DNA of 64,000 nt from Psammoneis japonica. Taxonomy: Eukaryota. The stretch lies in NCBI GenBank assembly GCA_008632985.1, contig QPGO01000261.1, positions 1-64,000 of the forward strand. Direction: 5' to 3'. Below are positions 8,601-59,526 of this stretch, one piece after another; the stretch's first letter is position 1, and every line of letters begins with the position of its first letter. Below the pieces are notes generated by a model. It did not search any database, had not been told where the DNA came from, and saw only the letters and a program-made list of their open reading frames with translations. The position numbers and the translations under genes are program-made.

Positions 8601-8703
8601 CGATCCTTTCCATGAGAAATGAGTCATCTTCCCGTTGGAGAGGAGTGGGCATCTCCGGTGACACAAGTTCAATGTTGCATTCCCAACAAAATGCCCAAAG
8701 TGA

Positions 8704-9160: not shown

Positions 9161-9294
9161 AAAGTGATCTGACCCATGTGTTGGTGACCAGCAGTGCCAG
9201 TTTCTTGCAGCCCATCTGACAGATTGTGCCACATGCCCCAAGCTCTAGCTGCATGTTCTCCCGCACTGCTGCCAGTTCTTTCCCTGTCACAAAA

Positions 9295-12115: not shown

Positions 12116-13415
12116 ATCGATGAGAGGTGACAGGCATGGCAAGCAAGCAAGCTGCCAATGGGCATTCGATGCTTCTCATCACGCCTCCCGTCAAGGACAA
12201 CCATGCCTCCATTTCCATTCAATTGTCCGCATCTTGCTCCATCAGCCCACTTCTCCACCTTCATGTTCAGTGCTTCAACTTGATGTTCCATTGATCCATC
12301 CAGCACTGCCCATGCTCCTGAGGTTTCTTCTGCGTCCCATGCCTCCAGCCATTGGATGGTCACCCGGTTTCCTTTGTGGTCCAAGATTGAGATGTCTCCC
12401 AGGGCTTCCACAATCGTTTGATGATGCCATTGGTCATCACACCATTTGAAGGTTGCCAGGGACCAGCGACTCTTGCTTGGCACCAAGGCACCTCTTGCAG
12501 CCCAAATCTCCTTCCCAGTGACAGTCCACCATGTGTTGCGTGCCTTCTGCAACCATCTCGTGTGTTGATTCCAAGTCCACTGATGTGTGGGGCAGGTCGG
12601 TGTCATCAACAAAGGCACAGCAGACACAATGAAATGTGTTCTGTGTGATTGGTGTTTTCGCCTGTGTCCCAAAACCTTCTTCTTTCAGCGTGTTTGTCAC
12701 AGGGATGCTTGCCAACAGCCAAATCCCGGGTGCAGCTCCGTGTCCCTGGAACATCCCTTGCAATGGGATTTCTGGCACTCTGCAGGGCTCGTCCGAGACT
12801 CCGTGTGCTGTTCGTGCACAGTGCTCAATCTGGCTGAGAGTTGCCACTGTCATGAAAAGTTTGTCGTCCTCCTCATCTGCACACATCCTTCTCATGCACA
12901 GGCATGCAATTGAGTGTAAGATCCTGTCGCAACATGATTTCGCGTCCGCACTGGTGACAGCTCCTGGTCAGTGGACTTGTCCAAACACATCACCCGCAAG
13001 AACTTTGTTGAATGCACAGATGATTGCCCTTTGTCTCTTCCTGCTGCTGTGTGCTTCTCCCATGGCATTTGTCTGTGCACGTCCGCCTGTTGTGCAATGG
13101 CCCACCTGCAGCATTTGTTCATTTTGTTGCACCGGGCATTGAAGAGTGCAATGACATGCAGTTTCTTGACATGACTGGACTCCTGTTTCTTTGGAGTCTT
13201 TACATCCACTGCCTTTGTCCAGCATTTGGGTGCATGGCCATGCTTTCCTGGGATTGCGGACACGCAAGCATCAAATTCAGCTGCTGCAGGATGTTGGCAA
13301 CTGGCTTTGCAATCCAAAAAGGCTGGTCCAAAGGGGCCACTCGATGTGTGTGCCTTCATTTTTTCCCATCCGTTGACATGTTCTTCAGCAGTGCATTTCA
13401 CATTGAGCTTTGGCA

Positions 13416-13594
13416 GGGGGGGGGGGGGGGGGGNNNNNNNNNNNNNNNNNNNNNNNNNNNNNNNNNNNNNNNNNNNNNNNNNNNNNNNNNNNNNNNNNNN
13501 NNNNNNNNNNNNNNNNNNNNNNNNNNNNNNNNNNNNNNNNNNNNNNNNNNNNNNNNNNNNNNNNNNNNNNNNNNNNNNNNNNNNNNNNNNNNNN
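13416..13594. other. Poly-G run and assembly gap
   Basis: G18 at 13416-13433 followed by an N run at 13434-13594. Confidence 0.98.
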
Positions 13595-16500
13595 GGTCGC
13601 CGTTTTCTCAATGGCACCATCTTAAAGAGCCACAACAATCAACAGTGTGTCGTGTGTCGTCAACTCACACACGGTGGTGTTGACACATGAGAGTGCAACG
13701 GGCTCATTGTTGGCTCATGCGGTCAAAAAGTGATGGGCAAACAAATTTGACATTTCAGCTGTTTTTGCTGCAATCAATCAATGTCAAAGCACAGCAAGGC
13801 ATGTGCATGTGAAATGAATTGTGTGCTGTCGACACATGTCAGTGTCATGGCGAGATCATGGCTGTTGATGGAGACATTGCGTTTGCGGTTGCCATTGTCG
13901 TCGCGTTTCGACAAGTCGTGAAAAATTTTGAAACATCAAACATTCGTGCATGTGGGCATGTTTTTGCTCATGTGTTCTGCATGTTGAAGATTGCTGCATT
14001 CGCGGAGTCGTCACATTTTTCATGCGTGACAAGAACATCGCATGTCTTGATGGGAGAGCAAGCAGACCGAGTGTTGAGAGCACACTGTTCCTGGATGACC
14101 TGTCCTGCCATGCACCGGTCTGCACGCCATTGTCATTCTCGCATGTGTGCCCTCCTTTTCTTTGAATCTAGCCCAGATCCATCTTCCTGGTCCAGTTGGG
14201 TCACTTCCTTTTGAGACGAGGTCGTGGCTGAGTGTGCGCTGGACCAGTTGTCCCACCCCTCTGCATTGTCTTTTTCCTGATGTGGAGTGATGCGCGGTGT
14301 TGGTGGCGACCAAGGTGTGGGATCGACGAAGTGTGCACCAGCAATCATTCCATTGTTGATTTTTTGGGATCCGCTCAAAGTTCAAGTTTGCCTCAATGAT
14401 TCCCATGGAGTCCACCTTGCACTTTGTTGTCCATTGTTCAACTTCGTTGTGCTTGTCATGCTTTGTTTTTTCCACTGGGAGGCCTCCAATGTTGTGGAAA
14501 GCCAAACGGCAGGCACTCTGGATTTTGATGTCAATGGAATCTCCCCACCATTCATCTGAATGCTGGCTGTTGTTTTCCAAATTTACATCCTCCTCAGGTG
14601 GTCGCCGGCCATTCCGCTGAGGATGATGTGGTCAAGGGATCTCCTCCAGTGCCCTCGGCCATGGCACTGGTGTTGTCATCCACCATTGACTCTCCTTCTG
14701 GTGTCTTTGGTGTGGCCAGATTATCTGCATCCTCTTCCATCCCTGGGCAAGCTTGCAGCTTGGCAAGTTCCACTTCAACCCTTTCCCCAGCTTGGCGTGG
14801 GTGGAGGGTGTGGTGGCCAGGGAAGCTCCGTCATGATGCGTTTCTGACTGATTGGCTTCTGCTGCATCCATTCCCTGAAAGTCCACTGACTTCTCCTCTG
14901 TTTTGGAGCATGTCATGTCGCCATCCTTGTTGCGGGCCATTTCAACTGAGCTGACGTCATCCGTGTTTTCCAGACATGCTGCCACTTGCTCCATTGCAGT
15001 CTTCACCTGTTTGACATTTCCCTTCTTCGGTTTTTTGTTTTGTTTGGATGATTCCCGCTTTTGGTGCTCCTGCTGCTCAGTGCTGATGTTGGACTGCCAG
15101 CTGTCTTTGATGCTCCACAGATCATCTTCAACAATCTCTGGGAGTTTCTCGTTGTCTTTGGAAGTTGTTGTGCCTGCATCTGGATCGTAGACTGCATCTT
15201 TGTAGATGGCAACACCAGCTGCTTTGAACCATGATGCCGCTTTTGGTCCAAGAAAGTGCAGCACCTCTGGAGCAAGGTCATTGATGGTCTGCATTGCTTC
15301 AACATGCACTTTCCTTGGAAAGGTTGTTGCGTGTTTGTTCGGCCGATTCCATTTGCAGCCCACGTGATGAAAGAGAGGGATCATCTTGTGTTTGTCAGAG
15401 GCAGGGTTGGCAACTCTTTTCCTCATTAGATGGCATTGGAGGTTGATTGGTTTCCCTTTTGGGTCCTTGATGGTGCTGTCAAGATCTTTGAACAGAGCAC
15501 AATCCACCGCAATGATTGCCTGCTCTGTGAAGCAGTGCTGGCATTGAGCAAGTTCTGTGACATTCTTCTTTGCATTGTCTGGGGCGCAGTGGAGTGCTTG
15601 GGAGGAGAAGTGTGGAACGAAGCACAGCATTGAGCCCAACATCTTCTTCCTTGCTCCTGCCCTCCAGATCCTCTCAGCTTGGATTCTTGCTTTGCATGCT
15701 TGACGGATCTCTGCATCAATGTGCAATGCCATGGGGTTCTTTTTTGGGTCGCCTCGATCAAATTTTGGACGTTTGCCGTCTGCCCCACATGTGATTCTCC
15801 ACTGCAGTCCCAGGTCTTGTGAATTCTGGATGCCCAGGCAGCACCTGACATTGTTGTGGAGAGTGACCTCTGTTGCAGTTTTGCTGCTGCAACAGAGCCA
15901 TCCTGTGCACTCAGCATGCATTGCTTGACAAGGAACAGGGTTCTGAGCAACAGAAAACTTTCCACATTCGATGTCCTCCATTGTTCTGTGCAGTTTTGAT
16001 CTGAACTCAGCCAGGCAAAATTTCGGTTCACCTTCAACTGCAAAGCAAATCAAGCAGCACATCACATGTTCTTGATTTCACTCATGGGTTGCAACGTCCC
16101 ACCTCCAAGAAGGAACTGAAGAGCTCCCTTTCTTGTGCCTTTCCTTCTGGAATGTCTTCTAGAGAGGTCCAATCACCGCAGGTCTCGCAAAGATCTGGGT
16201 CCCATGGACCAATGTGTGCATTGTCTCCTAAAACATTTTGAATGATTTCAAGAGCCTGTTCCAGCATTTTTGCTGTTTCCTTGAAGGGCTTGTCTGTCGA
16301 AGGGGCAGCCAACCACGCGTTGCATCTGATGTTCCAACAAGTTGCAGACGACTCTTCTTCTTCATCATCATCTTCTTCAGACTCTTCCATCGCTGATGCA
16401 TCTTGACAGTTGGTGCTCCTCAGATTTTCTGTTGGACCATCTTGTCCTTCTTCCATGCTGGTGTCTTCTTGTGGACCATCTGTTTCCGTTTCTTCCTCCT

Positions 16501-17059
16501 CATTTTCCTGAGTTTTTTCCTGACCCGATTCTTCTTGATCAGTTTGTTCCGGCGTGAAAGAAACATCCTGGACCATCAAATGCGTTGTCGCAGGTGTTCT
16601 CTTCTTCTTCGTTGTCTTCGCCATCTTCTGTCATGTGATCCTGACTGGTGATCTGTAAGTCTTTATCGTGCTTGTTCTTGCTTCGCGTACATTGACCATG
16701 AACCGGGGGCGTGACTATGAATGCTGTCTGGTCTCGTTTTCCTTGGTACGTGAATTTTGTGTAGAATCAGTACCAGAGTTACTGCCTCTATGTTGAAATG
16801 AGAAACGTTGAAGATTCTTTCGCTCAAAAGCTAGCTCTCTAGAGAGAGAGCGAGAGGACCATGTGTCGATCGGTCGATCGATTACTTTAGCGTTGCTACG
16901 CATCCGCACTGCAGCGCCGGCGTAACAGGTTAGCCACACAATGTGAACTCTACGAAAGCTTTCCAAGCTCGAGTCAATACCTGAATCTCTTTCACCCCGG
17001 GTTCTCTTCGACGTACTGTACTGCATTAGCTTGTCAGTACAGTGAATCCTAATCTGATC

Positions 17060-17340: not shown

Positions 17341-17347
17341 CTTATCA

Positions 17348-20300
17348 CTAGAAGCGACTAGACCCAGTATTTTGATCATGAGCATATTCTACCAAACTTT
17401 CGGGAATGGGAGGAGTAGTTTCGTCTAGACGATGCTCCTCAACGTATCGCACCAGCTCATCTTCCAATGATAATTCATCCCATTCTGGCTTGTCGCGATC
17501 ACATTTGAGACGTTCAATGAGGTCTGGCCACAATCTTCCGACTAGATACCTTGCGGGATCATCTATCCGAGCCGGAAAGTAGATGATTCTCTTTAGAGCT
17601 GGAGCAAACCTGTCGACTTCGTCGAGCTTCCAAAGATACGGGAATACCTTCAAGTTTTTCTGCTCCCGTCGCATCATGAAAGTGTTGAGCTCCATGACAC
17701 AGTAGCGACTCTCTCGAAAGTTGGGTGACAATATAATCACGGCATGGGTACACGTGTGCGCAGCTTCGAGTAGAGAACGCATCTGGTCTTCCCCAGTTTT
17801 CAAGCTTCCATCATCGATGAAGGTCTTGACGCCCAATCTTTTGGTGAGAAACCAACGCGTAGGACGAGCAATAGTCTCTTTGGTATCACCTCTATGCGAC
17901 AGAAACACATACGGATCACCACCAAGGTTGACCTGCCAAACACTGCTAGGATCCAGAACACCTTCCATTGACAACTCTCCCACATCTGTCTCGATACCAT
18001 CCAACCGTGCTTGCGTGTACAAGCTGGAAACGTTTCGTCCGTCAACTACAATCTGCGAGTGGGTGCCGTGGTGGCCGATTTCTTGAGCTTGAGAAAAGTG
18101 AGCAAGACGAGCCATCATTTGATTCAGCAGCGCCTTGTGCCTCGATGCCTTTCCGATCTTGTTGTAGCTGGCTTCTCCGTTCGTACAAACCACCGGAAAA
18201 TTAACATTTCTTCTGCGCTTGCGACAAAAATGCGAACTCATTCTCCTCTCTGGATTTGTCACTTTCGACCACCCAAATAACTGGGAATCTTGTCCTCTGC
18301 CAGCACTAACGCAGCAATGACATGCTAGCACCTCGTCATACTGCAAACCTGCGAAGTGATCCGTCACTTCGTCACGAACAAAGCTAACGGCACCGTTCAA
18401 CAGGCCCCAAGTTTCGTCCCTAAGCACGTCGTCCTTCGGACAGCGTACAGAAAACGACAAGTACGGCTCGCGGCCGACTATCTCCACAAGCTCGGACCGG
18501 ATCCATCGATCCTTCTCGTCAACCACAATCGCGCCATTCAGATATGTGCATACACAATTCCCATATGCATGGGTTGCAGCAGCAAAGTGTGCAGTAAGAC
18601 TCGAAGGGCAGCCCCTGTACATTATCAAGCGCAAATCTCGCTGCTCTTGTCCGGCTGGTACTTGCTCCGGCCACATATCCTCCCAATCTGACGGTATTTC
18701 TTTCTTTAAACGGAAGAGAACCACGGGAATAACATCAGCTGTGACTCGGGAACTGGTGTTCGTAGAAGAGTTCGGATGAGGTGACGAAGCAAATATGACG
18801 TCCGATTCAAGAAGCATCTGCAGAATCATTTGGTAGTCTTCTCGATCAATATTGAACTCACGCCACAAAAAGGGAAGAATCAGTGCGTCCAGCTCTCCGT
18901 TATATGTCAAATCTTTCAGCCCCTCCATTAAATCTTGTCGTAGTCCAATTCTTTTACTCTCGCAATTCTCGACGAAACTCTCAACTTCCTCGCCAAACTC
19001 CGATGAGTCTATTTTTTCGAGTGTCAAAGTATGGTCTATGAGAGGTGTGATCAAGTCGGTTACAAAAGACGGTTGCAAATACGCCAGCCCAGCATCAACA
19101 AAAATACTGCCCCGGGCTTCAAGAAGTCCTAGTGCATCGTCAAACGTAGTGTTGTCAGCCAGGGGGGCGTGCAAGAAGCGGAATTGATCCCACAATGAAT
19201 TGAGCCTTTCAACTGAACAGTATGGTCCTTTGGCTGGTATCTCAATCTCGCCGTCTGTAGTCGTCTTCATGTTCCCAATCTCGCCCAACGGGATAGCATC
19301 ATCGGAACTTGCTGCAGAGAAAAGCTCTTCTTCATCGGCATCTGCACCGCACTGAAGAACAGCGCCAAAGAATTTCCACAGCTCCTGCCATGACTTTGGG
19401 ATTAGCGTACCGACACTTGATAACCTCGGCTCCGCATGATCCTGCGTATGCCTAAAGATGGTATTGCTCACCTCTTCCCTAGCGCATGCAATGGCACTTT
19501 CACTCGTTACGGATACTTCCAGGACATTGGTTAGGACCCGGAGCAGTGGCGGCTTCTTTCTTTCCGTCGATTCCTCAGGTATGACACGATCATGAAGAGC
19601 AACTTCCTCTCTTTCTCTATTCGCGGCGGCATCACGCCATTTTTGAAGCTGCCCTTGGACTTTATTCTGGAGCCATTGCACTCTTTTCTCGAGCCATTGC
19701 TTTCGTTCAACCTCGTCCAACTCGTCCGGCACAATATCAACCTTAGATAGGACAAGTTGCACCACGGCACCCGGTGCCCTTGCCTGTAAAAGCACAAGAA
19801 AGCGATGCACTACTTCTTCATAGAAATCGTCGTGTGCTTTGTCCGCCGCCACGACAAGTAAAAAGAGTGACAACGCTGTCATGAATGGTGCCTGCCCCAC
19901 AGCATAGTCTTGCTGACCGCCGCAGTCATAGACCATTAGCGTAATTGGATCATCGCTGTATTCATCGGGTGCGTCTATCTGCACAGGTTCCACATCAAGA
20001 TAGATGGTCCGTTCCTCCTCACCCTCTGTGCGCGCCGGGAAACGACCGGCAATGGCATTGCGCAGGCTCGTCTTTCCTGCTTCCCCGTCCCCCACGAGCA
20101 CCGCCTTGAGCTGTCTGGATGTGGTTGCCCCCCCTTTATCCACGGCATCAAAGTAACGAGCAATCGCCTCGAGGCCCTGTTCCGCAATCTCGGACGGGGG
20201 TTCCAACAGTGGATCTCCAACCACATAAAACTCGCAGTTTCCCTCAAGCTTGACAAAGGAGCGTGGAAGTCTTGAAATTAGATTGAAACTCAGATCAAGC

Positions 20301-21106
20301 TTCCGGAGATTCGACGCCAATGTCTGGTTCGTCTCCAGTGCTTTGCCAATGGCCGCGGCAACCCCGTCTCCAATGGGATTGGCGAAGAGAGAAAGCTCCG
20401 TCAATGTTTTATTTCTTTCTAACGCTTTTCCAATGGCCGCGGCACCCTTGCGCTCAATGGAATTGCCGTCGAGAAAAAGCCCCGTCAATGTTTTGTTCGT
20501 TTCTAGCGCTTTTAAAATAGCTACGGCACCCTCGTCTCGAATGGCATTGTTTGTAAGATGAAGCACCGTCAATGTTATATTCATTTCTAGCGCTTTTCCA
20601 ACAGCCGCAGCACCCTCATGTCCGATGGAATTGGCACCAAGATAAAGCACCGTCAATGTTGTGTTCGTTTCCAGTGCTTTTCCAATGGCCACGGCACCTT
20701 TGGCTCCAATGGAATTTTCGCCGAGATGAAGCCACGTCAATGTCGTGTTCCTTTTCAGCGCTTTTCCAATGGCCGCGGCACCCTCGACTCCAATGGAATT
20801 GTTGGAGAGATAAAGCACCGTCAACGTTGAATTCGTTTCTAGCGCTTTTCCAATGGCCGAAGCACCCTCGTCTCCAATGTAATTGTATCCAAGATTAAGC
20901 TCTGTCAATGCAGTGTTCATTTCTAGTGTTTTTCCAATGGCCACGGCATTCTCATCTCCAATGTAATTCGTGTAGAAACTAAGCTCCGTCACTGTTGGAT
21001 CATTCTCTAGGAAGAGACGAATGCGCTCTTGAGCATGTGGCGACAAATGAATGAACCAATCCGCTGACATGTCAATGCTGCTGGAACTTGACGAAGACTG
21101 TTGCAT
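17348..21106 (-). CDS. LRR-ROC-COR-TIR ROCO-family receptor-like protein, copy 2 (intact, ~1252 aa)
   Basis: Eight 28-aa LRRs; ROC (LVGDGEAGKTS, RTIYLDV, YDCGGQQDY, LSKVD); COR region with a CxxC; C-terminal TIR (YVFLSHRG, TFIDD, AVIILSPNFRESRYCVMEL, with the Glu expected at the TIR catalytic position). Confidence 0.93.
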   Translation of the reverse strand: MQQSSSSSSSIDMSADWFIHLSPHAQERIRLFLENDPTVTELSFYTNYIGDENAVAIGKTLEMNTALTELNLGYNYIGDEGASAIGKALETNSTLTVLYLSNNSIGVEGAAAIGKALKRNTTLTWLHLGENSIGAKGAVAIGKALETNTTLTVLYLGANSIGHEGAAAVGKALEMNITLTVLHLTNNAIRDEGAVAILKALETNKTLTGLFLDGNSIERKGAAAIGKALERNKTLTELSLFANPIGDGVAAAIGKALETNQTLASNLRKLDLSFNLISRLPRSFVKLEGNCEFYVVGDPLLEPPSEIAEQGLEAIARYFDAVDKGGATTSRQLKAVLVGDGEAGKTSLRNAIAGRFPARTEGEEERTIYLDVEPVQIDAPDEYSDDPITLMVYDCGGQQDYAVGQAPFMTALSLFLLVVAADKAHDDFYEEVVHRFLVLLQARAPGAVVQLVLSKVDIVPDELDEVERKQWLEKRVQWLQNKVQGQLQKWRDAAANREREEVALHDRVIPEESTERKKPPLLRVLTNVLEVSVTSESAIACAREEVSNTIFRHTQDHAEPRLSSVGTLIPKSWQELWKFFGAVLQCGADADEEELFSAASSDDAIPLGEIGNMKTTTDGEIEIPAKGPYCSVERLNSLWDQFRFLHAPLADNTTFDDALGLLEARGSIFVDAGLAYLQPSFVTDLITPLIDHTLTLEKIDSSEFGEEVESFVENCESKRIGLRQDLMEGLKDLTYNGELDALILPFLWREFNIDREDYQMILQMLLESDVIFASSPHPNSSTNTSSRVTADVIPVVLFRLKKEIPSDWEDMWPEQVPAGQEQRDLRLIMYRGCPSSLTAHFAAATHAYGNCVCTYLNGAIVVDEKDRWIRSELVEIVGREPYLSFSVRCPKDDVLRDETWGLLNGAVSFVRDEVTDHFAGLQYDEVLACHCCVSAGRGQDSQLFGWSKVTNPERRMSSHFCRKRRRNVNFPVVCTNGEASYNKIGKASRHKALLNQMMARLAHFSQAQEIGHHGTHSQIVVDGRNVSSLYTQARLDGIETDVGELSMEGVLDPSSVWQVNLGGDPYVFLSHRGDTKETIARPTRWFLTKRLGVKTFIDDGSLKTGEDQMRSLLEAAHTCTHAVIILSPNFRESRYCVMELNTFMMRREQKNLKVFPYLWKLDEVDRFAPALKRIIYFPARIDDPARYLVGRLWPDLIERLKCDRDKPEWDELSLEDELVRYVEEHRLDETTPPIPESLVEYAHDQNTGSSRF

Positions 21107-21743
21107 CTTTTTGAAGACGAGACTTGTTTCCAAGCAATCCAACAATCCCAGGCAAGCAGCGCCAGTATCTTTTTCGTCTCACTCGATTTTGTGCAAGGAT
21201 GAGGAGTCCGTCACATTTGCTGGCTGCGTTGCCTCTCTGCGATGAAACCACTCGAATGGAGCAAATGTGTTGGTGTATCTGACGAGAAGAGACATTATCA
21301 AGGATGGGAATACTGTGTTGTATGAGGGATCATGGATAATGGCTCTTGCAATGGTGTCATGATAATGGCGAACGATGATTCTCCGTAGACGAGATGCCAA
21401 ATAATGCCGGAGGAGAGAACGGAAGAAGAATCATCATCGTCGTGCGTCAGTGGCGATTTGAGCACGGATTGCTTCTAATTCCTTTCTTTCAAGTAAAATT
21501 AGTACCACATTGTACGTAAAAAGGAATGAAAAGAAGGAATCTTGGGCGAGTGTATCTTTTGATCGTCATCACCCAATCAGCAAATTAATGTCACCGCCGC
21601 ACTCACTCGTCCATTCGTCCATTCATCCCGCCTCCATCCTCCATCACCCACCACGGCCACGTCGTTGTTGAAAAGGCCATTGTGGTTGCATGACTGTTGC
21701 TCTGTTCCAGCCAACATCACACACACACAAAACAACAAACAAA

Positions 21744-22774
21744 ATGGGAAAAAAGACCTTGGGTGCGAGTCTCAAGGGCAAAAAGCCCACCCATCGAGGC
21801 ACTTCAAAGACTGCCATCACGTCCAATCCGGGTCGGATCGGGGACAAACTGAAACGTTCGGAAATGTGCGGAAAGTGTCTCATGGAAAAGAAGCATCAAA
21901 AGAACATGGCTCATCGTCAACGTGCCAAGGAAGCCGAGGCACTCGGAGAAGAAGCTCCAGAAAAGCCCGCGCCGCAAACTCTGGAAAGCACGCGTGAGTT
22001 GGAGCCAACGTTGGCAAAACCAAACGATGAAGAAGTTGCCACCGACCAAGCTGAAGGTGAGTTTGCACCGCACTTTAACGATCAAGTGCAGCCCAAAATT
22101 CTCATCACCACATGACCACGTCCGTCGAAGCAGCTCTTTTGTTTTGTTGCAGACTTGCAAAGATTCTTTCGGCAGGCGCGCTTTTGTCCTCGCAAATTCT
22201 TCACAGTCAAGGAAATTTGTGGCTTTGCTGCCAATCGCGGCTTTTCCCATTTGACTGCATTGAGTGAAAAATCCAAGGCATGCAACGGCATGACCACATT
22301 TCGCGTTTGCGTGTTTGTGAAGGACACAACGTGACGGCCGGCCCCACGGCCTTTTTCAAGGTGAGCAACGTCATTTCGTCGACTGACATTCCCAACCACG
22401 GCTCCGCCACAAGTCACATTCCCGAATTGGTTTTGAGTGGATTTGGAACATGACTTGGACATCGTGTTGGGCATTTTTTGGGAAGTTTGTTTCCGCACAA
22501 TGCTCAGTTTCAGGGACGGCAGGTGGCGACCTTTCACAATCAGCGGGACTTCATCTTTGTGCGGCATCATCGACATGTCTTTGAGCCATCCAAGAATGTC
22601 AGCAAAGAGACAAAGCAACCTAAGACCAAGGCAAGATTGCAAGAACTGGGGCCTTGATTTGCTCTCAAGCTCCGGTGGATTCAGGAGGGTGCTTTTGACG
22701 CCATGTTTGGTGAATGTGAATGGATTCACAAGCGCAAAGAGATGGACATGATGCGCAGAAAGTTTCATTTGCAA
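21744..22774 (+). pseudogene. RPF1: RPF1 pseudogene, hypermutated
   Basis: Collinear with 2203-3228. CGA-to-TGA stops at 22113 and 22451, indels near 22300-22330, stop TAA changed to CAA, and Tyr codons changed to Cys or His. Confidence 0.95.
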
Positions 22775-24065
22775 TGAGATTTTGGCAGCACAGATGATGA
22801 TTGTCAACAATCTGTTGTTTGTAAGTTGTTTTTTTTTGTCCAGTGCTGCAACAAAGGATGCGGACACGGACTGGAAATGACCACCAGTTCGGTCAATGTG
22901 GCGCGCATCTTTGACATGCCGCTGTTTCGTCTTGCACTGTTTCATTGACAACTTGTGTGCGGCACTCTTCTGCCTTCCTCACTCTTGTCCACAAAACAGA
23001 ATGCCAGTGTGGCCCAGCCCACATCAGTGTGGTTTGGGGTCTCAATTCATGGTTGTTCTGTCAATCTGTTCGATGAATTCAACCAGCTGTGCTCTCCAAC
23101 CTTGCGGAATGCTGTCTTGCACACAGCCAGAGAGCACCGGTGCTTGACTTGATGGCAGCAAGATTCAAAAGTGGCTGCAGAGTTGCAAATCAAAATGCTG
23201 CAGAGCAAGACATGATGGATTGTTGGGAGTGCTAAAAACACACAACAGTGGCTTGCCTTTTGTTCGAAATGTCTTTCATTTGAAATGCTCAGCCAATCTC
23301 GCCATTGGTGAGCACTCCAGTTGCAACCTGCCTGCAAACACAAGTGAGAGTGAGCATGGCAAAAACCAGGCACTGGCAACAATCACCAAGAATGAACACA
23401 ACATCAATGTGGCACTCCAAACCAAAAGAGCTTGCTTGGAAGGGCGCCACGCAACAAGCGCAGAGGCAGGAGCAGAAGGGTGCATCATTTTGCTCTTGCA
23501 CTGAAAAACAGAACAGCAAGAGCAAATCTTCTTTCTGTTTGGCCCTTTCCTCTTTTCCAGAATGCTGCTCTCATTGTGGCCAAGCAACAAGTGGAAGCAG
23601 GTGCCAAGGTTGCAGGGTCAGCGGCCTGTTGCAGCTCTTGGCTTGGCACCAGCAGCAGCAGCAGCACAGCAAGCTGCGCCATCAAAACACAAAGGGTGCA
23701 GAGATGATGACCATGGGCTCCAGCTTTGCAAGGCACAAGAGGAGCCACAAAGGTGCTGGTGGCATGGAGCCTGAGCTCTGAGAAACTCACAGAAGCTGCT
23801 GTCATCTCTGGGGGCAAGCACGCAAGTTGGCGCATTTGTGAGCTGTGCATCTGATGTGGTGAAATGCAAACTAACTGCATCTGTGAAGTGGAAGCAAGAG
23901 CTCAGCTCCCTGATGTGGAAAAAGTGTTGTGGTCCAAGGCCAAATGATTGTGCAATTCTGGGCCATTCACAAGCAAAAGGTGCAGAGCACCCCAGTCTGC
24001 TGGTCAGGCGTGTGAAACATGCTGGTCTGGGCAGAGCTCCATGCAGCTGTGAGACCCAGGCCTCA
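22775..24065 (+). repeat. Diverged copy of the sequence downstream of RPF1 copy 1 (~3230-4400)
   Basis: Shared blocks such as GGTGCATCATTTTGCTCTTGCACTGAAAAACAGA at ~3872 and ~23479. Confidence 0.85.
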
Positions 24066-27000
24066 AGCAACTTGAAGCTGGCATCACAGGTGCGCTCCGG
24101 ACAAGCACACAGACCATCACCACGGCAACAACATGGAAAACTTGTCAAAAAACCACCAGAGCTGATGACGACATTGGCGTGGCAGACAAGGCATCTAAAC
24201 ATCAGCCGTTTTTTGGACCATTGCAACAGAAGCTCTGTCAGACCCACATCAGCACACCATTGCAATCATCCATTTGGAGACGCACATTTTGGTGAGAAAT
24301 GTTGAAACATGCCATTGCACTCCTTCATAACACCATGTTGCATGCAGATGATGCACCAACTTGCCATTTGCTGGATTTTTGGCACCCACTGAGTTAAAGT
24401 CTGAGTTTGTAAAAAGGCAAGCAAATTGAAAATCAAAATGGTGTCGTCAGCATGTCCAAGGCTCGCCACTTGTTGTCTCACTCAACTTTCTTGCCAGAGC
24501 AGCCAATTCTCGCTGTCTTTCCCAGCATGAGCACATTGACAAATCCAACATCATCATCACACAGTCAAGCCCATTTGAGTGGTCAATGGCATTGACCAGA
24601 TGAACATTTTTGAAGACTCTGACAAAGCAGCTGCGGTGCACTCAGCCAAGCATTTTTGAGCGGAAGAGAGTCAGGCGGATGGGAGTGAAAATGAAGAATG
24701 AAGTTGGCACATGGTTCAAGAAAAAAGCAGTGATGAAATGTTGACAAAACACTCTGATGCTGCTGTCACTCCACAGAATGATGAACAACAGCAAACAGAG
24801 CTCCTCCCTGGCTTGTGTGCACTCTAGATTGGTTGCAAAGACACAAACATCAAATCTGAAAATGGAAAAGTGTGGCTTGCAAATCAGTGCTCACGGATTG
24901 CTTCACCCATTTGCAGCATGAAACAGGGCAGACATGGTTGTCACGAGGTCAAAGACAAATTGGAAAGCAGAGCATTGCCATGAAATTGGTTTGTGATGAT
25001 GTTGTCATCCAGCCTTGGTGTCAAGAATGGGTCAATGTCAATTTCACCTCATCGCAGTGCAAGTCACGTGCATTGAATCCCATGGGACCCACTTGACTTG
25101 ACATTTTTGGTGGAACTGGCTAGACTTTGACCCCAGCCAGAGCCACAAAACACAGAAGACATGAGCATTGTTAGTCTCCCACCCTTTGGAACATTGTCTT
25201 GCAAGAACAAAACAGGCATGCATTGCTCATGGTGTCAGGCATTTGAAAATGGAGCTGACATTTTGCGGAGCACCTTTGTCACACGTGAAAGTGCAAGGGA
25301 CAATTTTCAGTCATGGCTCTGCAGCCAACGCAACCCTCTGCTTGCGACCCCAAAAGTCATCGGGAGCTTTGCACCAGCACGACATCAGTCAGCTGGAAAT
25401 GCACCTTGGCAAAAAATGGGGGGTTTTGTGATCACATGTGGAAGCATGGCATTGGGGCCCACAGCTGCCAGGCATCTGTTGTGCATTGTGAGTTTGAAGT
25501 TTGTGTTGACAACTTCTGGGCACCCCGTGTCTGCTGCAAGCAGCCAAGGCAAGTGTGACAAGCAGCACAGGAAGCCCCACAGGATTCTCTTTTGGCACAC
25601 CAACTTGCTGGTTCAACGCTCACTCCAAAGAGTTGCCGGCACTGCATTTGGTGCCCAACAATGTCAACACTCTGCTTGCAGTCAATTGATTGCTGCAAAC
25701 CTGCACAACAAGTGGCAGAGGAAGCAGCAGACCCAACAGCTGAGGTGAAAGATGTGGTTGTGGAAGAGACAACAAGAGCCGCTCACAGGCCCTCTGACCC
25801 AAAAAATGAAGCCAATGCCAAGAGCCACTTGCAGCCTGAGAAGAAGTTCCGTCCTTCATCACTGAACAGCAACACTCACAATGCAACATGCAAAGCTGTC
25901 AAAGAGAAGATCATCCATCAGCACATGCAGAATGTTGCAGATGGCATGATCTCAGAGCTGATGTCTGCAAACACTGTCAACCACACTCTTTTAAGTTGGG
26001 CAAAGCATTGAGGCTGTCAAGGAGCAAACTCAAACTGCTGCACTCTGCCTGCCATGCAGATGACACCCAGGTTGATGCGCGAGCACTCAATGATCAAGAA
26101 CACTGCCGCAGCAAACACGCGCCCCCACAGAAGGAAGGAATCTCTGATGTGCACAGTCCACACAAAGTTGTGCAATGAAAAACCTTGACCATGACAAGCA
26201 CTTCAAGTTCAGCACCTTCAGCTCATTTGTCCTGTCTCACATTGATTCAACCCAATGAACACCATGGGCACATGTGCAGGCTTTGAAGCAGAGTTGCAAC
26301 AACGGACATGAAGAAGTGCTCACGGCCACTCCAGAAAACAATGGTGCGTTTGAGTTGTGACACACAGCCAGCCCATTTCTGTGGCTGCTCAACAACACAC
26401 AATGATGCACATGACATCAGAGCTCCTTGTTGTGATGGTTTTTCATTGTTTTCATGGATGATTGAGCAATTGCTCAAACTTGCGCACCACAAGTTTGAGC
26501 AGTCTTCTGAGTTTGAGCAAATGGGCAATGCAAATTTGAGCAATTTCTCAAACTTTTGATGGCAAAAGCAAAGACCAGAACTCTCAATCATGGCCGTCAA
26601 GTCTTGCTTGGTGTGGGCTTCACTGCAACTCAACACACAGTTTGGCGCCAAAGCACAGCTTTCCGCCCCAGCTCCATGCTTCCACGTGCAAAAATTGACC
26701 CCCTGTTTTTAACCAAATGCCCACCTTGATTGACCAACAGCACACAGATGTGAAGTTCATGATGCTTTTGGGGTCCCAGAATGGGGGTGAATGTCAGTTG
26801 CTGGCCAATCACTGAAAATCGTCCCCCCACACTTTCACGTGCAACAAAGGTGCTCCATGAAAAGTCACCTCCATTTTGAAATGCCAGATGCCATGAACAG
26901 TGCATGCCTGTTGCATCCTTGCGCAAGACATTGGGTTAAAGAGTGGCTGTGAGACCAATGATGCTCACATGTTGAGCATTTTGTGGCTCCAGCGGGGGTC

Positions 27001-28400
27001 AAAGTCAAGCCAAAACTTCCAAAAAATTTGAGTTGAGAGTGGGTCCCACAGGATTCAATGCTTGTGACTTGGAGTGTGAGTTGACCCTTTCTCAACACTG
27101 AGACAGACAACAACAACATCACAAACCAATTTCATGGCAACACTCTGCTTTCTAATTTGTCTTTGACCTCATGACAACTGCACTTGACCTCTTGCAAGAA
27201 AGTTGAGTGACGCAACAAGTGACGAGCCTTGGATGCATTGACGACACCATTTTGATTTTCAACTTGCTTGCCTTTTTACAAAGTTGGAGCTCAACTCAGC
27301 AGGTGCTGGAAATCTGGTTGGTGGTGGGTGCATGAAGAATTGTCGTGCAACGTGCCATCACGACAAGCAAAAGGGTCCCACAGGATTCAATGCTCATGAC
27401 TCAGAGTGTGAGTCAACCCTTTCTCAACACCGAGACAGACAACAACATCATCACAAACCAATTTCATGGCAACACTCTGCTTTCCAATTTGTCTTTGACC
27501 TCGTGACAACTGCATTTGACCTCTTTCATGCCACAGACAGGCCAAGCAATCCATGAGCACTCATCTGCAAGCCACACTTTTCCATTTTCAGATTTGACGC
27601 TTGTGTCTTTGCAATCAATCTAGAGCACATGCAAGCCAGGGAGGAGCTCTGTTCACTGTTGTTTGTCATTCCACAGAATGACAGCTTCAGAACATTTTGT
27701 TGACATTGTTTGACTGCTTTTTTCTTGAACCACACACCAACTTCATTCTTCATTTTTGCTCCCATCTGCCCGACTCTCTCCCATTCAAGAACACTTGGCT
27801 GAGTGCATTTCAGCTGCTTTGTCAAAGTCTTGAATGAGATTTGTCTGGTCAACAACATTGCTCAAATGGGCATGATGACGTGACGATGACATGATGACAA
27901 CGTTGGATTTGTTGATGTGCTGATGCAATGAGAGTCGGCTGTGGCGGCAAGAAAGTTGAGTGAGACAACACCAAGTGGTGAGCCTTGGATGCATTGACAA
28001 CACCATTTGATTTTCAATTTACTTGCCTTTTTACAAACTTGGAGTTTAACTCAGCGGGTGCTGGAAATCCGGTTGGTGGTGGGTGCGTGAAGAATTGTCA
28101 TGTGACATGCCGTCACAACAAGCAAAAAGGCATGTTTCAAAAATTCTTGCTAAAATGCTTGTCTCCAACTGGACTTTTACAATGGTGCAACGTGTGGAGT
28201 CTGACAGAGCGACAGTTGCAAATGTCAAAAAATGATGATGGTTTAGACACTTGTTGAAGCAATGCAATTGTCGCCATTGTCGGTGAGAGATTGGATCAAT
28301 TTCCCCACGTTGTCACCACGGCGACAGTCTGCACACTCATCCAGAGCACACCTGCCATGCCAGTTTGGAGTTGCTCAAGGCCTGGGTCTCACAGCAGCTG
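24045..28400. repeat. Large diverged inverted repeat (arms ~24045-25460 and ~26660-28400; internal duplications in the right arm)
   Basis: For example, 24045 CAGCTGTGAGACCCAGGCC matches the reverse complement of ~28378-28400; 24780-24900 matches the reverse complement of 27545-27660; 25080-25460 matches the reverse complement of 26660-27060. Confidence 0.85.
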
Positions 28401-29894
28401 TTGATGCTCAATGATCACAAAGTGGTGCCTCATTTTCAGTGCACTCATTTTTCTCAAATGGGTGTTCAGCACCTCCATTGACACACACACATCAGCAATG
28501 CAGCTGTGACATTGAGTGGCTCAGGGTGGGATCACTGCACAGCAGACAGCTGTGTGGGCTGAAGAGACACTCTGCCTTCCCATCTTGCTCTGTCTGGCAA
28601 GGACTGACTGTGCACCATGGTCCATTTTCTGCAGCCGCACCCTGACATTGACCCGTCCAGGGCAGGTTTTCTCAACTGAGAAATGTGGCTTGCTGCAAAT
28701 GCCTCATTTCAATGTGATGCAACTGCGTTGTTGTGGGCTCTTCCAACAGGACTTCAATCTGGCACAACATGGCGGAGCAGCACAACTTTGCAAACATGCC
28801 AGGCATGTGAGTTGCACAGTGAATTTCTGCACCACATTGGGCAAGCCTTGAAAGGGCCTTTTCTTCAATGCATTTCACAATTGACAAAGCTTCAAAATCT
28901 GTTCATTCATCCAAGAGCAACACCAGAGCAGGAATCCTGCCATTGTCTGAGCTGCAGTCAAGAGCTGGCAAGATGCTGTTTTGAGACCAGCAAAAGCTTG
29001 AGGGGTGTTCACAACATGATGGCATCATCTGGTGCCATGTTGCAGATTGTGCCACAAACACCACTGCTTGTTGAACACATGTCAGCTGTCTTGCAGCACC
29101 ACCATGCAGTCTGACAATTTCTTTCAAAATTTTGTTAAGTGATCGCCGCAAATCAGTGCTCGCAGGTTTTGATCTGAATGAGTGGGTTTTCCTTCTTGAG
29201 CTCAAACTTGACCTGATGCAGGTGTCTCAGCTCTCACCACAAGGTTCATTGGGGCAGATTTGCCACTCAACAAAGCTCCAAGCAGGAGCATCATTTGGGC
29301 TTGAACACAGAGTGAAACACGCAGTGGATGGCAAACTCTTGCTTGGGTGCCGACAAAAAGAGGGTGCAGAAAAGAGTCAGAGGGCACAAGAGAGGGGGGA
29401 CACTTCATCAAGCTTTGCCAAAGCAGGTTGAAACTTGATGTTGTGGGGTGCCATTGCAATGAGTGCATCCGTCATGAGACAGCACAACCAGCCAAGAAAG
29501 AGGAGAAGCACTCTGAGAAATCGACTTGTCATTGTGAGTTGAAGTGACCCTTTCATGAACTTTGCTTGCAGTGCCTCCACATCATCACTTCCTCCTTCCT
29601 TGACTCTTCCAGAACATGTGAATGTTGCTCTCTTGAGAGTTGGTTAGAAGATCAACATCAACAATGACGACATTGCCACGACAGCACACAACAACACAAG
29701 AGAAAACTTTCACATGGCACGAATGCTGACATGCCACAGCTGCTGCTTGCTTCTGTGCAGGGCTTGTGCTGGCTTTCACCTGGACATGTGTTTTGGCATG
29801 CAGATCGATTTCTGGTGCACCTCACACTCTGTTGCGTGTCACTGTTGCATTGCACTGCTCTTCTTGATGCTGTTGTTCGCACACGGCATCCACC

Positions 29895-30150
29895 ATGGCC
29901 AGAGCACACAAGAAGACGGAGCTTGTCCCTGCATCAATGCATCTGACTTGGCTTCAGGACAGCATGCTGGAAGCATTGTGAGTCTTGTCAGGACAGTTGA
30001 ATCCTTTGACGGAAACACGATTCAATTGCGATGCTCCGACGGCGGCACGGCACTTGCCATTCCCGATGCCGCAGCTGACTTTGACATGCCAGCCAGAGCC
30101 AAGGTGGAGTTGATTGGTGCCACTCAAGCCAAGAGTGGACAGCTTTCCAA
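29895..30150 (+). pseudogene. RPA3: RPA3 (RPA14 ssDNA-binding subunit)-like relic
   Basis: DGACPCINA..GQHAGSIVSLVRTVESFDGNTIQLRCSDGG..KVELIG resembles the RPA14 OB fold once Cys/His are reverted (DGAYPRINA, GQYAG). The nearby ATG is out of frame. Confidence 0.6.
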
Positions 30151-31631
30151 GTTTCATTTTTGGCATGCCAGTGGGAATTCAATGTGTTTCTGCATGTGAC
30201 AGTTTCTCACACATGCGCACAAACATCATGAACTCTGCGAGCTCCAACACGAGAATGACACAAAGCACAAAGAGTTTGCAAGAGAGCAAACAGCATTGCC
30301 AACACACTGTGAACGTAAAGCAAAAATGCCAAAACATTGTTGTTGCATGACACACAGATGGTTGGTCTGTCGACAGACAAAACAAATTGCCTTCAAAGCT
30401 GGTCAGAAGCTTCGGTGGACTTTGCAGCTGCTTGCATGCAGTTGGGTCACAACAGAGGCCTGCGTCACCCACTTTGAATCATTCTCAAATGACAACCACA
30501 GCCAACTCCTCCACCAATGTTGCTGACACCTTCTCTGTCAAGTTGCCATTCAACTCAACAAATGCTCTCTGCAGCAGGAGAGCAAATGATGAGACTTCTG
30601 GCTCGTCCACCAAGATGACAACGTTGCTGACTGGACAACTCTCCAGCATTTTTATTTCAGTCACAGATTTGTCGTGTGACTGGTCAACATCCACAACCAC
30701 AAATCTTTTTGGAAGTGTCGCTTGTTTTGCACCCACAAAGCAGAGCCCTCTAAACTGCTGCTGCTGCATGGAGAAAAGGAGACAAAGCAGCCAGCCACAG
30801 TTCCTGGATGAGCAACCTTTTTTCAGAACAAGTCCTCCTTGGGACATCAGGCTAAACTCACTGTCATGCCACCAACCCCAGCTCTGCTGAGTCATCCACA
30901 CCAGTTGTGTTTGCCACAGTGCTACCAAAGCAACTTCCAATGGGGCCAACGTGTCATTTGCAGCTCTTGCATCCACAGAAACACATTCAGGGTGTGGGGC
31001 TGTGACCAGCATAAAATGCAATGTGATGCATGCAATGACATGTAAAAAACATTTTTGTGCTCCACACATGCGGAATGTCTCTTTTAACACATGATGACTG
31101 CATGTGACTCTTTGTGTAGAATTTCTGCCTGCCTGCGTGCTCAGGGAGAAATCACAAATGTTCAACGTAGAGTGTCTTTCTTTCAAGTAAAAAATGTTGT
31201 GGATGCAGATCAAAATTTTCTCTTCTTTCACTCGTGCATGCTGTCACAAAATGACAATCGGTGCTGCATCAATCATCTCTCGTCATGCATCTCCACAACC
31301 ACTGCACACCACACCCAGAGCCGTCCAACCATGTTTTGCAGACGACTTTGCATGACACATTGATGTGGTGCAAAAAGGTGACACAGGTGCATTCCAAGGA
31401 CAAGCTTTTGTGTTTTCTTGCACTGTTTCATTTTCATTGCTGTCTCACAGAACTTGCCATGCTCAATGTGCACGTGAAAAAGTGATGTGGGCTGCTGCTG
31501 CTGTTGTGAATGAAGTGCCACATCATTGATGTGGCAATGCATGGCAAAGCCAGTCACGAGCCACGCCTTCCTCTTTGTCATTCACTCCCCTTTGAAATGA
31601 CAACAAGCCATGCCTTCCCCTTCATCATCAC

Positions 31632-39132: not shown

Positions 39133-39480
39133 CAACATGCCGAGTGTCACGGTCATCTGTGTTCATTCGTGGGTGTCAGCCCGGTGTCAAAAGGATGTCA
39201 ACGATGACACTTTCTAGAAACCTCTTCTCTTTTCTCGACACATCTCGATGCCTCTCGAAAGATTGTTTCTTTGTGTTTCTGCGCAGTTTCTTGGTGTTAA
39301 TTCTGTGAGATTTCGGAGCAGCCGAATCTCTTTCATTTCTTCTCACAACATTGGCAACAGTCAACTTTACAACGCCATTTTACACTGCCACTTGGCACCA
39401 CTTGGCACAGCAAATTTGCTCCCAAATGCTTGTTCATCTCTCTTGAGACATGTCCACCGACCACATTGTCCTGACCAGAC

Positions 39481-59520: not shown

Positions 59521-59526
59521 TCACTA

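Follow-up and report, generated by a model that had tools for sequence, protein, structure and literature searches.

The window analysed here, a stretch of 64,000 nucleotides of the Psammoneis japonica contig QPGO01000261.1 (GCA_008632985.1), contains three copies each of a ROCO gene and an RPF1 gene, with the ROCO genes on the minus strand and the RPF1 genes on the plus strand. ROCO copy 1 (1..1702) is cut by the start of the window, ROCO copy 2 (17348..21178) encodes an LRR-Roc-TIR protein (Pfam LRR_6, Roc, and TIR_2) in an intact frame of 1276 codons, and ROCO copy 3 lies at 59527..63159; copies 1 and 3, also identified with Pfam, differ from copy 2 by one and three frame changes, respectively (tblastn). 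RPF1 copy 1 (2203..3228) is, according to its translation, an intact Brix gene of 341 codons (Pfam Brix 1.4e-27), RPF1 copy 2 (21744..22778) was recognized as a hypermutated pseudogene by comparison with copy 1, and RPF1 copy 3 (63659..64000) is represented by its aligned 5' part, the window ending within the gene. All of these genes have a normal content of TA dinucleotides with the exception of RPF1 copy 2. A protein atlas gave no finer taxonomy than 'Brix domain, Eukaryota'.

A two-state HMM on the probability of A after T (0.144 in the normal and 0.023 in the erased state) was used to call the borders between TA-normal and TA-erased DNA. Borders were placed at 3341/3343, 4624/4626, 5660/5666, 16654/16656, 21586/21589, and 58117/58118, i.e., at or near all six positions named in the initial annotation, with a less abrupt transition at 58.1-58.4 kb than elsewhere. 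The three islands with genes (1-3341, 16656-21586, and 58118-63998) have TA o/e values of 0.45-0.56 and all coincide exactly with gene units; the island holding ROCO copy 2 has a TA o/e of 0.56 and a CG o/e of 1.00. The TA o/e of the erased domains is 0.06-0.10, with CA and TG raised to 1.6-1.85 o/e (the widest ranges recorded being 0.02-0.1 for TA and 1.6-2.0 for CA and TG; rho between TA o/e and CA plus TG: -0.82), so that the change is confined regionally and contrasts strongly with its surroundings. The erased domains are 3343..4624 downstream of RPF1 copy 1 (TA o/e 0.06, CG o/e 0.32), 5666..16654 (TA o/e 0.10), and 21589..58117, which spans 36.5 kb (TA o/e 0.10, CG o/e 0.64). The first of these is homologous to 22952-23866 in copy 2, and among the 189 differences between the two sequences are 19 double differences of CA versus TG; conversion therefore occurred independently in each copy, after the duplication. 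The second contains a partly converted stretch at 9800-12100 and an ORF of 904 codons (9377-12091) with 0.8% Tyr, 4.5% His, and 4.2% Cys. Selected Tyr codons were considered as the origin of the TAs that survive in this ORF and were rejected, with 8 of 38 TAs in phase 0.

The mutational signature was read from RPF1 copy 2, which shares 87-89% identity with copies 1 and 3. Compared with copy 1, 25 of 32 TA sites were changed to CA or TG, one site was changed in the reverse direction, and one was kept (p=8e-7); 5 of the 6 TA sites that could be compared with copy 3 were likewise converted. The conversions comprise 14 CA and 11 TG and are clustered by strand (8 runs in 25, P=0.022). The change is one of A to G or T to C at TpA only, giving TpG or CpA, and the 5' base at converted sites is strictly T. 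Across the erased DNA, RTAY sites remain at 3% of their density in the islands, sites susceptible on one strand at 16%, and YTAR sites at 42%, with TAT and TAC the most strongly and TAG and TAA the least depleted contexts. RPF1 copy 2 is a dead gene with a stop at codon 124 (CGA to TGA), Tyr to Cys or His changes, and a later frameshift, and it carries about 8% other divergence besides the signature.

Erased targets include an LTR element, a Helitron, the RPF1 duplicate of the host, and much DNA without a recognizable domain. The LTR retrotransposon (39139..43944, plus strand; RVT_1, Integrase_H2C2, and rve) is TA-erased with a normal CpG content, and 11 of the 12 substitutions between its LTRs (39139-39379 and 43725-43944) fall within TA, CA, TG, or CG steps. 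The Helitron relic (44997..50733, minus strand) was identified by PIF1, Helitron_like_N, and DUF6570 domains. The mutator acts in place and on both strands, because the host gene carries 14 CA and 11 TG conversions next to an untouched homologous flank, because the substitutions of the LTR pair carry the signature, and because a DNA element, the Helitron, is erased as well. In two Pfam scans 57 of 62 tested ORFs of the erased domains had no match, and the second of these scans, on 45 further ORFs, returned RVT_1 and a sub-threshold SAP match and nothing else; most of the erased DNA thus has no Pfam classification.

One insertion within the erased DNA is unmutated. The island at 4626..5660 (TA o/e 0.85, CG o/e 1.37, GC 0.39) overlaps an element of 824 bases (4861-5684) with terminal inverted repeats of 37 nt, for which inspection by eye gave no convincing target-site duplication. 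The borders at 4624/4626 and 5660/5666 are the edges of this young insertion and not chromatin borders, so the six borders are not all alike as had been proposed initially. Either a position inside an erased domain is not sufficient for mutation or the insertion is very young.

The border upstream of RPF1 copy 2 was resolved with a site table of the three-copy alignment and with the HMM. The switch lies in 21587..21707, with 37-157 bases between it and the downstream ATG of RPF1 copy 2, and the interval widens to 21554-21707 if it is bounded by highly susceptible sites alone, giving a step width of 121-154 bases. Before 21586 copy 2 kept 9 TA sites and has 2 converted ones, and from 21708 onward it has 1 kept and 14 converted sites (Fisher p=0.00016). 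On the ROCO side 19 sites before 21590 have a TA in copy 1 or 3, and in copy 2, 9 of these are retained, 2 read CA or TG, and 8 are lost to gaps or other changes; copy 2 also has 8 private TAs there. On the RPF1 side (21708-22297), 14 of 16 sites with a TA in copy 1 or 3 are CA or TG in copy 2, one has another change, and the sole site kept is of the TTAA type (22076). The last intact highly susceptible site is a GTAT at 21553, as expected from the initial annotation, which had susceptible sites intact to about 21555, and the final TA before the switch, whatever its context, is at 21586. Conversion was also correctly assigned to the RPF1 side, with its start now moved from about 21816 to 21708, where a CTAG of the RPF1 leader, 36 bases ahead of the ATG, became CCAG. 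The TA-free gap from 21586 to 22076 measures 490 bases, compared with 187, 168, and 231 bases for the longest gaps within the islands, and at the TA density of the islands a gap of this length has a probability of about 1e-8.

Just inside the unmutated side of this border is a block conserved in all three copies (21530..21604, alignment read by eye), with a CCAAT at 21573-21577, runs of 30/30, 11/11, and 13/13 columns in which copy 2 matches copies 1 and 3, and poorly conserved flanks. Its conservation suggests that it is a shared promoter element. The border interval itself overlaps an indel-rich stretch of low complexity in which the inter-copy BLAST alignment breaks (copy 2 21604-21694), and an old rearrangement may have occurred there.

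Contigs of two sets, X1 and X2, were compared with the assembly; the three sequencing runs available are of one sample, and the DNA type of each was assigned by guess. A contig of the X1 set spans 21265-21953 and another matches 14398-16716, bridging the RPF1 copy 2 border and the 16.65-kb border with 0 differences; the X1 contigs were assembled separately, although from the sample used for the assembly, of which X1 may be the source. The RPF1 copy 2 border, being bridged, is not a contig join, which had been named as a possible refutation, and the only run of Ns (13434-13594) coincides with no border. Small indels between the assembly and X1 are present at 17094 and 17169. At 19448 X1 has G in place of the A of a TA; a mutation of ROCO copy 2 was considered and rejected, as this letter represents the paralogous copy 3.

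On the normal side of the 16.65-kb border an X1 variant contig defines a polymorphic patch (16687..16802). This minor form (depth 26.2 of 94.2) has three extra TA to TG changes on the same strand at 16717, 16748, and 16772, also has TG/CA at 16722-16723, and spares the single site that is susceptible only on the opposite strand. It points to recent or continuing activity of the mutator, and can be taken as a hint of de novo mutation. The contigs of the X2 set (30 Mb, the longest 16 kb) cover only about 16856-22232 of the window, and at 21913 and 21923 they match copies 1 and 3 exclusively. If X2 were a transcriptome, silence of the erased DNA would give such a pattern; as the type of the run was guessed and uncovered parts are no proof, the pattern was counted neither way.

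The paralogs allowed the role of duplication to be evaluated. ROCO pairs are 85-91% identical over stretches of 1.1-1.7 kb, and TA changes between them are roughly symmetric (13 versus 7, 12 versus 6, 7 versus 7, and 9 versus 7), with a slight lean in the comparisons sharing copy 1 (25 versus 13, p=0.07). Copies 1 and 3 are identical at 600 of 602 positions (99.7%) across the intergenic region, where their TAs are kept, and at 330 of 341 positions (96.8%) in the 5' part of RPF1, with TA changes of 2 versus 1. The description of the ROCO genes and of RPF1 copies 1 and 3 as untouched therefore stands. The normal state extends past the end of paralog homology by 288 bases in one case (16656-16941) and by about 1000 bases in another (58118-59122), and in copy 2 the erased state reaches into the homologous block. 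Mutation is not triggered by duplication, because the nearly identical copies 1 and 3 and the ROCO stretches keep their TAs while only one of the three RPF1 copies is erased, and because the borders are uncoupled from the edges of homology; the earlier statement that targeting is unlike homology-triggered RIP is borne out on both counts.

CpG decay, which cytosine methylation usually leaves behind, is an additional signature that is separable from TA loss. The islands have CG o/e values of 0.98-1.03, compared with 0.32-0.64 for the erased domains, and TA o/e and CG o/e are correlated over the 64 windows of 1 kb (Spearman 0.72). However, 13 of 45 TA-poor windows of 1 kb keep a CG o/e of at least 0.8, and TA loss therefore needs no long-standing CpG methylation. 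RPF1 copy 2 has lost about 93% of its TAs versus 23 of 75 CpGs (about 31%), from which TA loss is estimated to be about sevenfold faster than CpG loss; changes of CG to CA or TG relative to copy 1 number 24 versus 6. Strong CpG decay (CG o/e 0.2-0.4) begins past about 22900, some 1.3 kb beyond the TA border. It looks as if RPF1 copy 2 was engulfed later than the DNA deeper in the domain, because its TAs are nearly gone yet its CpGs are mostly kept, because strong CpG decay is found only past that point, and because in the copy 1 unit the border still falls beyond the 3' end of RPF1.

We give slightly better than even chances to an interpretation in which a mutator acts in place on DNA that is silent rather than repeated, up to the start region used by ROCO copy 2. 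A DNA-level mutator would convert TpA to TpG or CpA (A:T to G:C) on either strand, with a preference for T-A-pyrimidine, and its target would be DNA held silent by the cell. Once the unit of ROCO, RPF1, and flank had been duplicated, long ago, the redundant RPF1 copy 2 would have been silenced and taken into a silent, CpG-methylated domain on its 3' side, and TAs would have been erased as far as the boundary between the silent state and the start region still in use by the intact ROCO copy 2, leaving a step about one nucleosome wide. The link to a silent state is drawn because the normal islands are gene units and because CG o/e is lower in the erased domains and correlated with TA o/e. The deciding variable is probably chromatin or transcription state, and the locus is consistent with targeting by a chromatin state that halts at active promoters. 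The promoter of ROCO copy 2, judged solely from the intact frame of 1276 codons and the conserved block, is presumably active, and the mutator enzyme may be an adenine deaminase of the TadA/ADAT kind.

More tentatively, and with chances that we put below even, diatom-like algae may possess a chromatin-guided DNA adenine deaminase that acts in single-strand patches of <100 bases at T-A-pyrimidine, advances with the edge of silent DNA, halts within one nucleosome of a used promoter, and is active now, the last because one border is polymorphic. If so, the silencing of a redundant copy, and not repetition or foreign origin, would be the event that condemns it; the silent state would be written permanently into the sequence, and former chromatin borders would be preserved, as fossils, in the TA map of the genome.

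The mutator could instead be guided by RNA, with small RNAs derived from read-through or antisense transcripts of the neighbouring repeats, in which case the border would be the end of a transcript at the start site of RPF1 copy 2 and not a chromatin barrier at the ROCO promoter. The erased tract does span the whole transcription unit of RPF1 copy 2, from the leader (21708) to past the 3' end, the conversions form same-strand runs, and the possibility was raised by Mettrop et al. (bioRxiv 10.64898/2026.01.13.699255). We nevertheless consider RNA guidance unlikely, as RNAs of RPF1 copy 2 would match the untouched copies 1 and 3 at 87-89% identity, and it overlaps heavily with the chromatin model.

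No more probable is a frozen history, in which one or a few past bursts acted on DNA that was then silent and the borders are fossils, together with the edges of later insertions, that may mismatch present chromatin. The insertion at 4626-5660 makes two razor-sharp borders by timing alone, the degree of erasure varies among elements, and the process in Bigelowiella natans was active in some lines only (bioRxiv 10.64898/2026.01.13.699255). The minor variant at 16717-16772 (depth 26 of 94) speaks for recent or continuing activity instead, and such a history accounts for the timing but not for the sparing of gene units.

Purifying selection, with a ubiquitous mutator and TAs kept in functional genes only, would explain why the normal islands are genes, and is nonetheless very improbable. 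About 400 bases of intergenic DNA (21180-21586) and the 3' flanks at 16656-17347 and 58118-59526 are TA-normal, the TAs of ROCO copy 2 are normal with symmetric turnover (counted without regard to codon position), and selection acting site by site could not give so abrupt a step. Less credible still is RIP-like mutation triggered by homology: the duplicated sequences include RPF1 copy 2 with its flank, and much of the domain consists of transposon relics, but the locus already contradicts this explanation, as the chemistry is the opposite (TA is lost instead of gained), the best duplicates and the ROCO triplet are spared, erasure affects a single partner of the RPF1 pair, and the borders ignore the edges of homology. 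An artefact of an assembly join or of base-calling errors at modified bases is just as implausible, since X1 contigs bridge two borders with 0 differences, the sole N run lies elsewhere, and RPF1 copy 2 is further marked by a stop and a frameshift as well as by other divergence of about 8%, although the small indels relative to X1 and the shared sample might be held in its favour.

The process of TpA erasure is known from one 2026 preprint, and the locus constitutes a natural experiment on how it is aimed. Three paralogous gene pairs, with one member of one pair erased, provide a comparison of before and after at single-site resolution. Duplication and selection are excluded as the aiming rule, and the edge lies about 150 bases or less from a gene start that is shared. 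The sequence rule, T-A-pyrimidine in same-strand patches, narrows the search for the enzyme.

RIP in Neurospora and other Pezizomycotina consists of dense CpA to TpA transitions that are triggered by duplication and mutate both copies. As in RIP, dense transitions in a dinucleotide context kill repeats in place, and RIP sometimes leaks into neighbouring DNA. Unlike RIP, TA falls to 0.02-0.1 o/e here in place of C-to-T change at CpA with an excess of TpA, and near-identical duplicates are spared in place of both copies being mutated. Methylated, silenced transposons lose CpG through deamination of 5-methylcytosine, and a corresponding loss of CG to TG or CA is seen in most erased domains (CG o/e 0.2-0.6) and not in the islands (about 1.0); the TA loss is beyond the reach of 5-methylcytosine deamination and also occurs in the 13 CpG-normal windows. 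Like the editing of retroelements by ADAR or APOBEC, which is used against selfish elements, the changes would represent clustered, strand-coordinated deamination. ADAR, however, acts on RNA, would mark one strand of retro-copies, and prefers a 3' G, whereas here the changes affect both strands, reach a DNA transposon as well as a resident gene of the host, and favour a 3' pyrimidine. To our knowledge, a natural activity of TadA/ADAT2-type enzymes on DNA in algae is unproven. DNA editors derived from TadA are described as acting from A to G on single-stranded DNA with YAC or YAY>YAR preferences and a requirement for a 5' pyrimidine (PMC12528748). These hierarchies resemble the order of T-A-Y over T-A-R observed here, where the 5' base is strictly T.

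None of the papers returned by our literature search describes TpA hypermutation in diatoms, and the preprint on Bigelowiella was its sole match (bioRxiv 10.64898/2026.01.13.699255). Mettrop et al. described TpA-restricted hypermutation of integrated viral DNA in B. natans, observed as de novo mutations in cultured lines and directed at foreign or selfish DNA (integrated viruses and transposons), and proposed an ADAT2-like deaminase for the TpA signature (bioRxiv 10.64898/2026.01.13.699255). The main hypermutable region of B. natans (NCLDV) is single-copy and transcriptionally silent, and TpA-poor CDS of that species are enriched for transposon domains (bioRxiv 10.64898/2026.01.13.699255). P. 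japonica belongs to a different lineage, and the present locus differs in its near-saturated erasure (TA o/e 0.02-0.1 versus 0.45 in the viral region), in the erasure of a duplicated host gene, and in the CpG decay alongside. The T-A-pyrimidine preference, the same-strand patches, and a border of about 150 bases at a gene start were seen here, the accessible part of the preprint being without an analysis of borders. Both systems share the restriction to TpA to TpG or CpA changes, their regional confinement, an independence of copy number, and a long-term depletion of TpA with a gain of CpA plus TpG in clustered 1-kb windows (bioRxiv 10.64898/2026.01.13.699255).

The sequence of the window is eukaryotic and alternates between two compositional states: scored in 1-kb windows, the TA observed/expected ratio (o/e) was 0.4-0.8 over part of the sequence and 0.02-0.2 elsewhere, and CA and TG rose to 1.6-2.1 wherever TA was low. 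Using a two-state HMM (probability of A after T of 0.144 in the TA-normal versus 0.023 in the TA-erased state, in which TA steps were turned into TG or CA), borders were placed at 3341/3343, 4624/4626, 5660/5666, 16654/16656, 21586/21589, and 58117/58118, and all six borders named in the initial annotation were hereby recovered. The normal segments comprised three gene islands, carrying ROCO1 and RPF1-1, ROCO2 alone, and ROCO3 and RPF1-3, respectively, and a 1-kb island at 4626-5660 (TA o/e 0.85, CG o/e 1.37, GC 0.39). The right border of this last island coincides with the end of an 824-base element (4861-5684) that has terminal inverted repeats of 37 nt (97% complementary) and retains intact and numerous TAs amid TA-erased DNA; the borders at 4624/4626 and 5660/5666 are insertion edges, and the element either inserted too recently to have been hit or escapes. 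On its left, 235 AT-rich bases (4626-4860) were unmutated too, and no clear target-site duplication was found at the element.

Self-BLAST and a three-way MAFFT alignment identified an old duplicated unit in the order ROCO, head-to-head intergenic region, RPF1, and 3' flank, present at 1-4255 (copy 1), 16942-23866 (copy 2), and 59123-64000 (copy 3, truncated at the window end). Pfam searches placed minus-strand ROCO genes (LRR-Roc-TIR) at 1-1702, 17348-21178 (a 1276-codon open frame), and 59527-63159, and an intact 341-codon RPF1 gene (Brix domain, copy 1) on the plus strand at 2170-3228. The ROCO paralogues share 85-91% identity and RPF1 copies 1 and 2 share 87%; copies 1 and 3 are identical at 600/602 positions of the intergenic region and 330/341 of the 5' part of RPF1. 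The ROCO protein (1276 residues, three paralogues) has LRR repeats, then a Roc GTPase, and a TIR domain at its C-terminus, an architecture resembling immune receptors, and the LRR region of copy 2 is built from 84-base units repeated in tandem (20315-21010). Relative to ROCO copy 2 there was one frame change in ROCO1 and three in ROCO3, and at about 63970 RPF1 copy 3 had one base inserted as compared to copy 1; either these TA-normal genes are truly decaying or the differences are indels of the assembly. Indels between the assembly and X1, a sequencing run of the same sample with contigs of its own, were found at 17094 and 17169.

The border between ROCO copy 2 and RPF1 copy 2 was resolved site by site, taking copies 1 and 3 as the state before mutation and scoring each of their TA sites in copy 2. 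Before 21590, nine of 19 sites were kept, two were CA/TG, and eight were gaps or other changes, and copy 2 had eight additional TAs of its own; at 21708-22297, CA/TG was found at 14 of 16 sites, with one kept and one otherwise changed (kept versus converted, Fisher p=0.00016). Since the final TA lies at 21586 (the final intact highly susceptible site, GTAT, at 21553) and the earliest conversion at 21708, 36 bases upstream of the RPF1 copy 2 ATG (21744), the switch occurs within 121 bases, or 154 if only susceptible sites are considered. The sharp border proposed initially was thus confirmed and refined. The TA-free gap following the switch spans 490 bases, as compared to at most 231 within any gene island (P about 1e-8). 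Because a CCAAT at 21573-21577, just within the unmutated side, lies in a block conserved across the three copies and the ROCO copy 2 and RPF1 copy 2 ATGs are head to head with ~640-675 bases between them, this start region can reasonably be labeled a putative bidirectional promoter. In copy 1 the border lies about 260 bases past the RPF1 stop codon.

Over the whole RPF1 gene, copy 2 kept one of the 32 TA sites of copy 1 and had CA/TG at 25 (14 CA, 11 TG), as opposed to one change in the reverse direction. The conversions were clustered by strand, the 25 events forming 8 same-strand runs (P=0.022 in a shuffling test), and copy 2 shows Tyr to Cys or His changes throughout, a CGA-to-TGA stop at codon 124, and a frameshift further on. 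CpGs were lost 24 times relative to copy 1 versus 6 times in reverse. The TA loss of ~93% compares with a CpG loss of 23/75, and CG o/e falls to 0.2-0.4 only past about 22900.

Across the window CG o/e was 0.98-1.03 in gene islands and 0.32-0.64 in erased domains and correlated with TA o/e (rho 0.72, 64 windows), although the two losses are separable, CG o/e being at least 0.8 in 13 of 45 TA-poor windows, including the LTR element. Decay of CpG is accepted as the trace left by cytosine methylation, and the erased domains therefore look like long-methylated, silent DNA. The simplest scenario would be that the flank was silenced first, in both copies, that silence later extended across the redundant RPF1 copy 2, and that its spread halted at the start region still needed by ROCO copy 2. 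Judging from the sequence, we lean slightly towards targeting by a chromatin state that stops at active promoters as the best reading. Guidance of the mutator by RNA is a live rival, as is a frozen history in which the borders were left from past activity.

A minor X1 contig bears on ongoing activity. It covers 16687-16802, just within the TA-normal side of the 16.65-kb border, at a depth of 26.2 of 94.2 (adjacent single-copy contig, 89.4), and has A replaced by G at 16717, 16748, and 16772, each a T-A-pyrimidine site on the plus strand. A GTAG at 16762, susceptible only on the other strand, was unchanged, the flanking susceptible sites at 16688, 16780, and 16789 were intact, and 16722-16723 is CA in this contig versus TG in the window. 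The patch looks like a single same-strand event, no longer than 92 bases, in an allele or subclone and is possibly a live snapshot of one mutation patch; this one contig suggests recent or continuing activity of the process and borders that are able to creep.

Further differences from X1, at full X1 depth, were G in X1 versus A in the window at 24329 (TA to TG) and at 22895 (CA to CG). At 24401-24800 the X1 contig depths summed to as much as 943, as compared to about 90 in the vicinity, which suggests a repeat family of high copy number, and an inverted duplication of roughly 1 kb (24046-25005 and 27442-28395, 76% identity) lies within the erased domain. Contigs of a second run (X2) covered only the ROCO copy 2 gene region (16856-22232) and over RPF1 had the letters of copies 1 and 3; X2 comprises 30 Mb of contigs (longest 16 kb), which would fit a transcriptome, its type having been guessed as DNA.

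That erasure is not triggered by duplication alone is well supported. The best duplicates in the window, the 600/602 stretch of copies 1 and 3, kept their TAs (TA changes 2 versus 1). TA turnover in the spared ROCO triplet was roughly symmetric (13 v 7, 12 v 6, 7 v 7, and 9 v 7), with a slight one-way lean in the two comparisons involving copy 1 (25 v 13, p=0.07). Borders lie off homology edges: the normal state extends past the point where the paralogues cease to be homologous (16656-16941 and 58118-59122), and the erased state intrudes into the homologous block in copy 2. Selection as the keeper of TAs was rejected given the normal density across ~400 intergenic bases and 3' flanks.

The 3' flanks of copies 1 and 2 (3409-4255 and 22952-23866) are homologous and both TA-poor, and 19 of their 189 differences were CA-versus-TG double differences, compared to 5 in the RPF1 and 5 in the ROCO-body comparison (odds ratio 4.5, p=0.00013), which is what independent either-strand conversion of shared ancestral sites would give. 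In the retrotransposon at 39139-43944, 11 of 12 LTR-pair differences fell within TA/CA/TG/CG steps, and a Helitron relic was TA-erased too. The DNA itself was altered in place, after duplication, and RNA-level editing of retro-copies therefore cannot account for the pattern. Borders as assembly joins were likewise excluded, since separately assembled X1 contigs bridged two of them without a difference (21265-21953 and 14398-16716; a sample-specific oddity would escape this check, X1 sharing its sample with the other listed runs and possibly being the source of the assembly), and the only N run in the window (13434-13594) coincides with no border.

Relative to gene islands, survival was 3% for RTAY (T-A-pyrimidine on both strands; 0% for ATAT, 0.7% for ATAC/GTAT), 16% for sites susceptible on one strand, and 42% for YTAR, in support of the TAY preference noted initially. 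Surviving one-strand-susceptible TAs were strand-biased in opposite directions at 9800-12100, around a minus-strand 904-codon ORF (5 YTAY to 21 RTAR, p=0.03), and at 38001-44000, the plus-strand LTR element (20 to 7, p=0.0006; island baseline for both 101 to 147), and unbiased in the Helitron (12 to 12); the template strand seems to be attacked more heavily around the ORF and in the LTR element. This frame (9377-12091, minus strand; Tyr 0.8%, His 4.5%, Cys 4.2%; CG o/e about 1) is situated in partly erased DNA, had no Pfam match, and is probably what is left of an unclassified mobile element.

Among classical processes RIP comes nearest, yet both its defining tests failed here. The available text of a preprint on Bigelowiella natans (Mettrop et al., bioRxiv 10.64898/2026.01.13.699255) describes the same TpA-only signature, with A:T-to-G:C changes that appeared de novo within two integrated viral regions of mutation-accumulation lines, one region being single-copy and transcriptionally silent, TpA-poor windows clustering genome-wide, and an ADAT2-like deaminase put forward. 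As a lead, the T-A-pyrimidine rule would fit such an enzyme; TadA-derived DNA editors have YAC or YAY>YAR preferences (PMC12528748). No report of TpA hypermutation in diatoms was found in literature searches, and the erasure is a further case of a phenomenon described once. Borders, context beyond TpA, strand patches, and CpG, absent from that portion of the preprint's text, were analyzed here, and the locus contributes an aiming logic and exact, testable coordinates.
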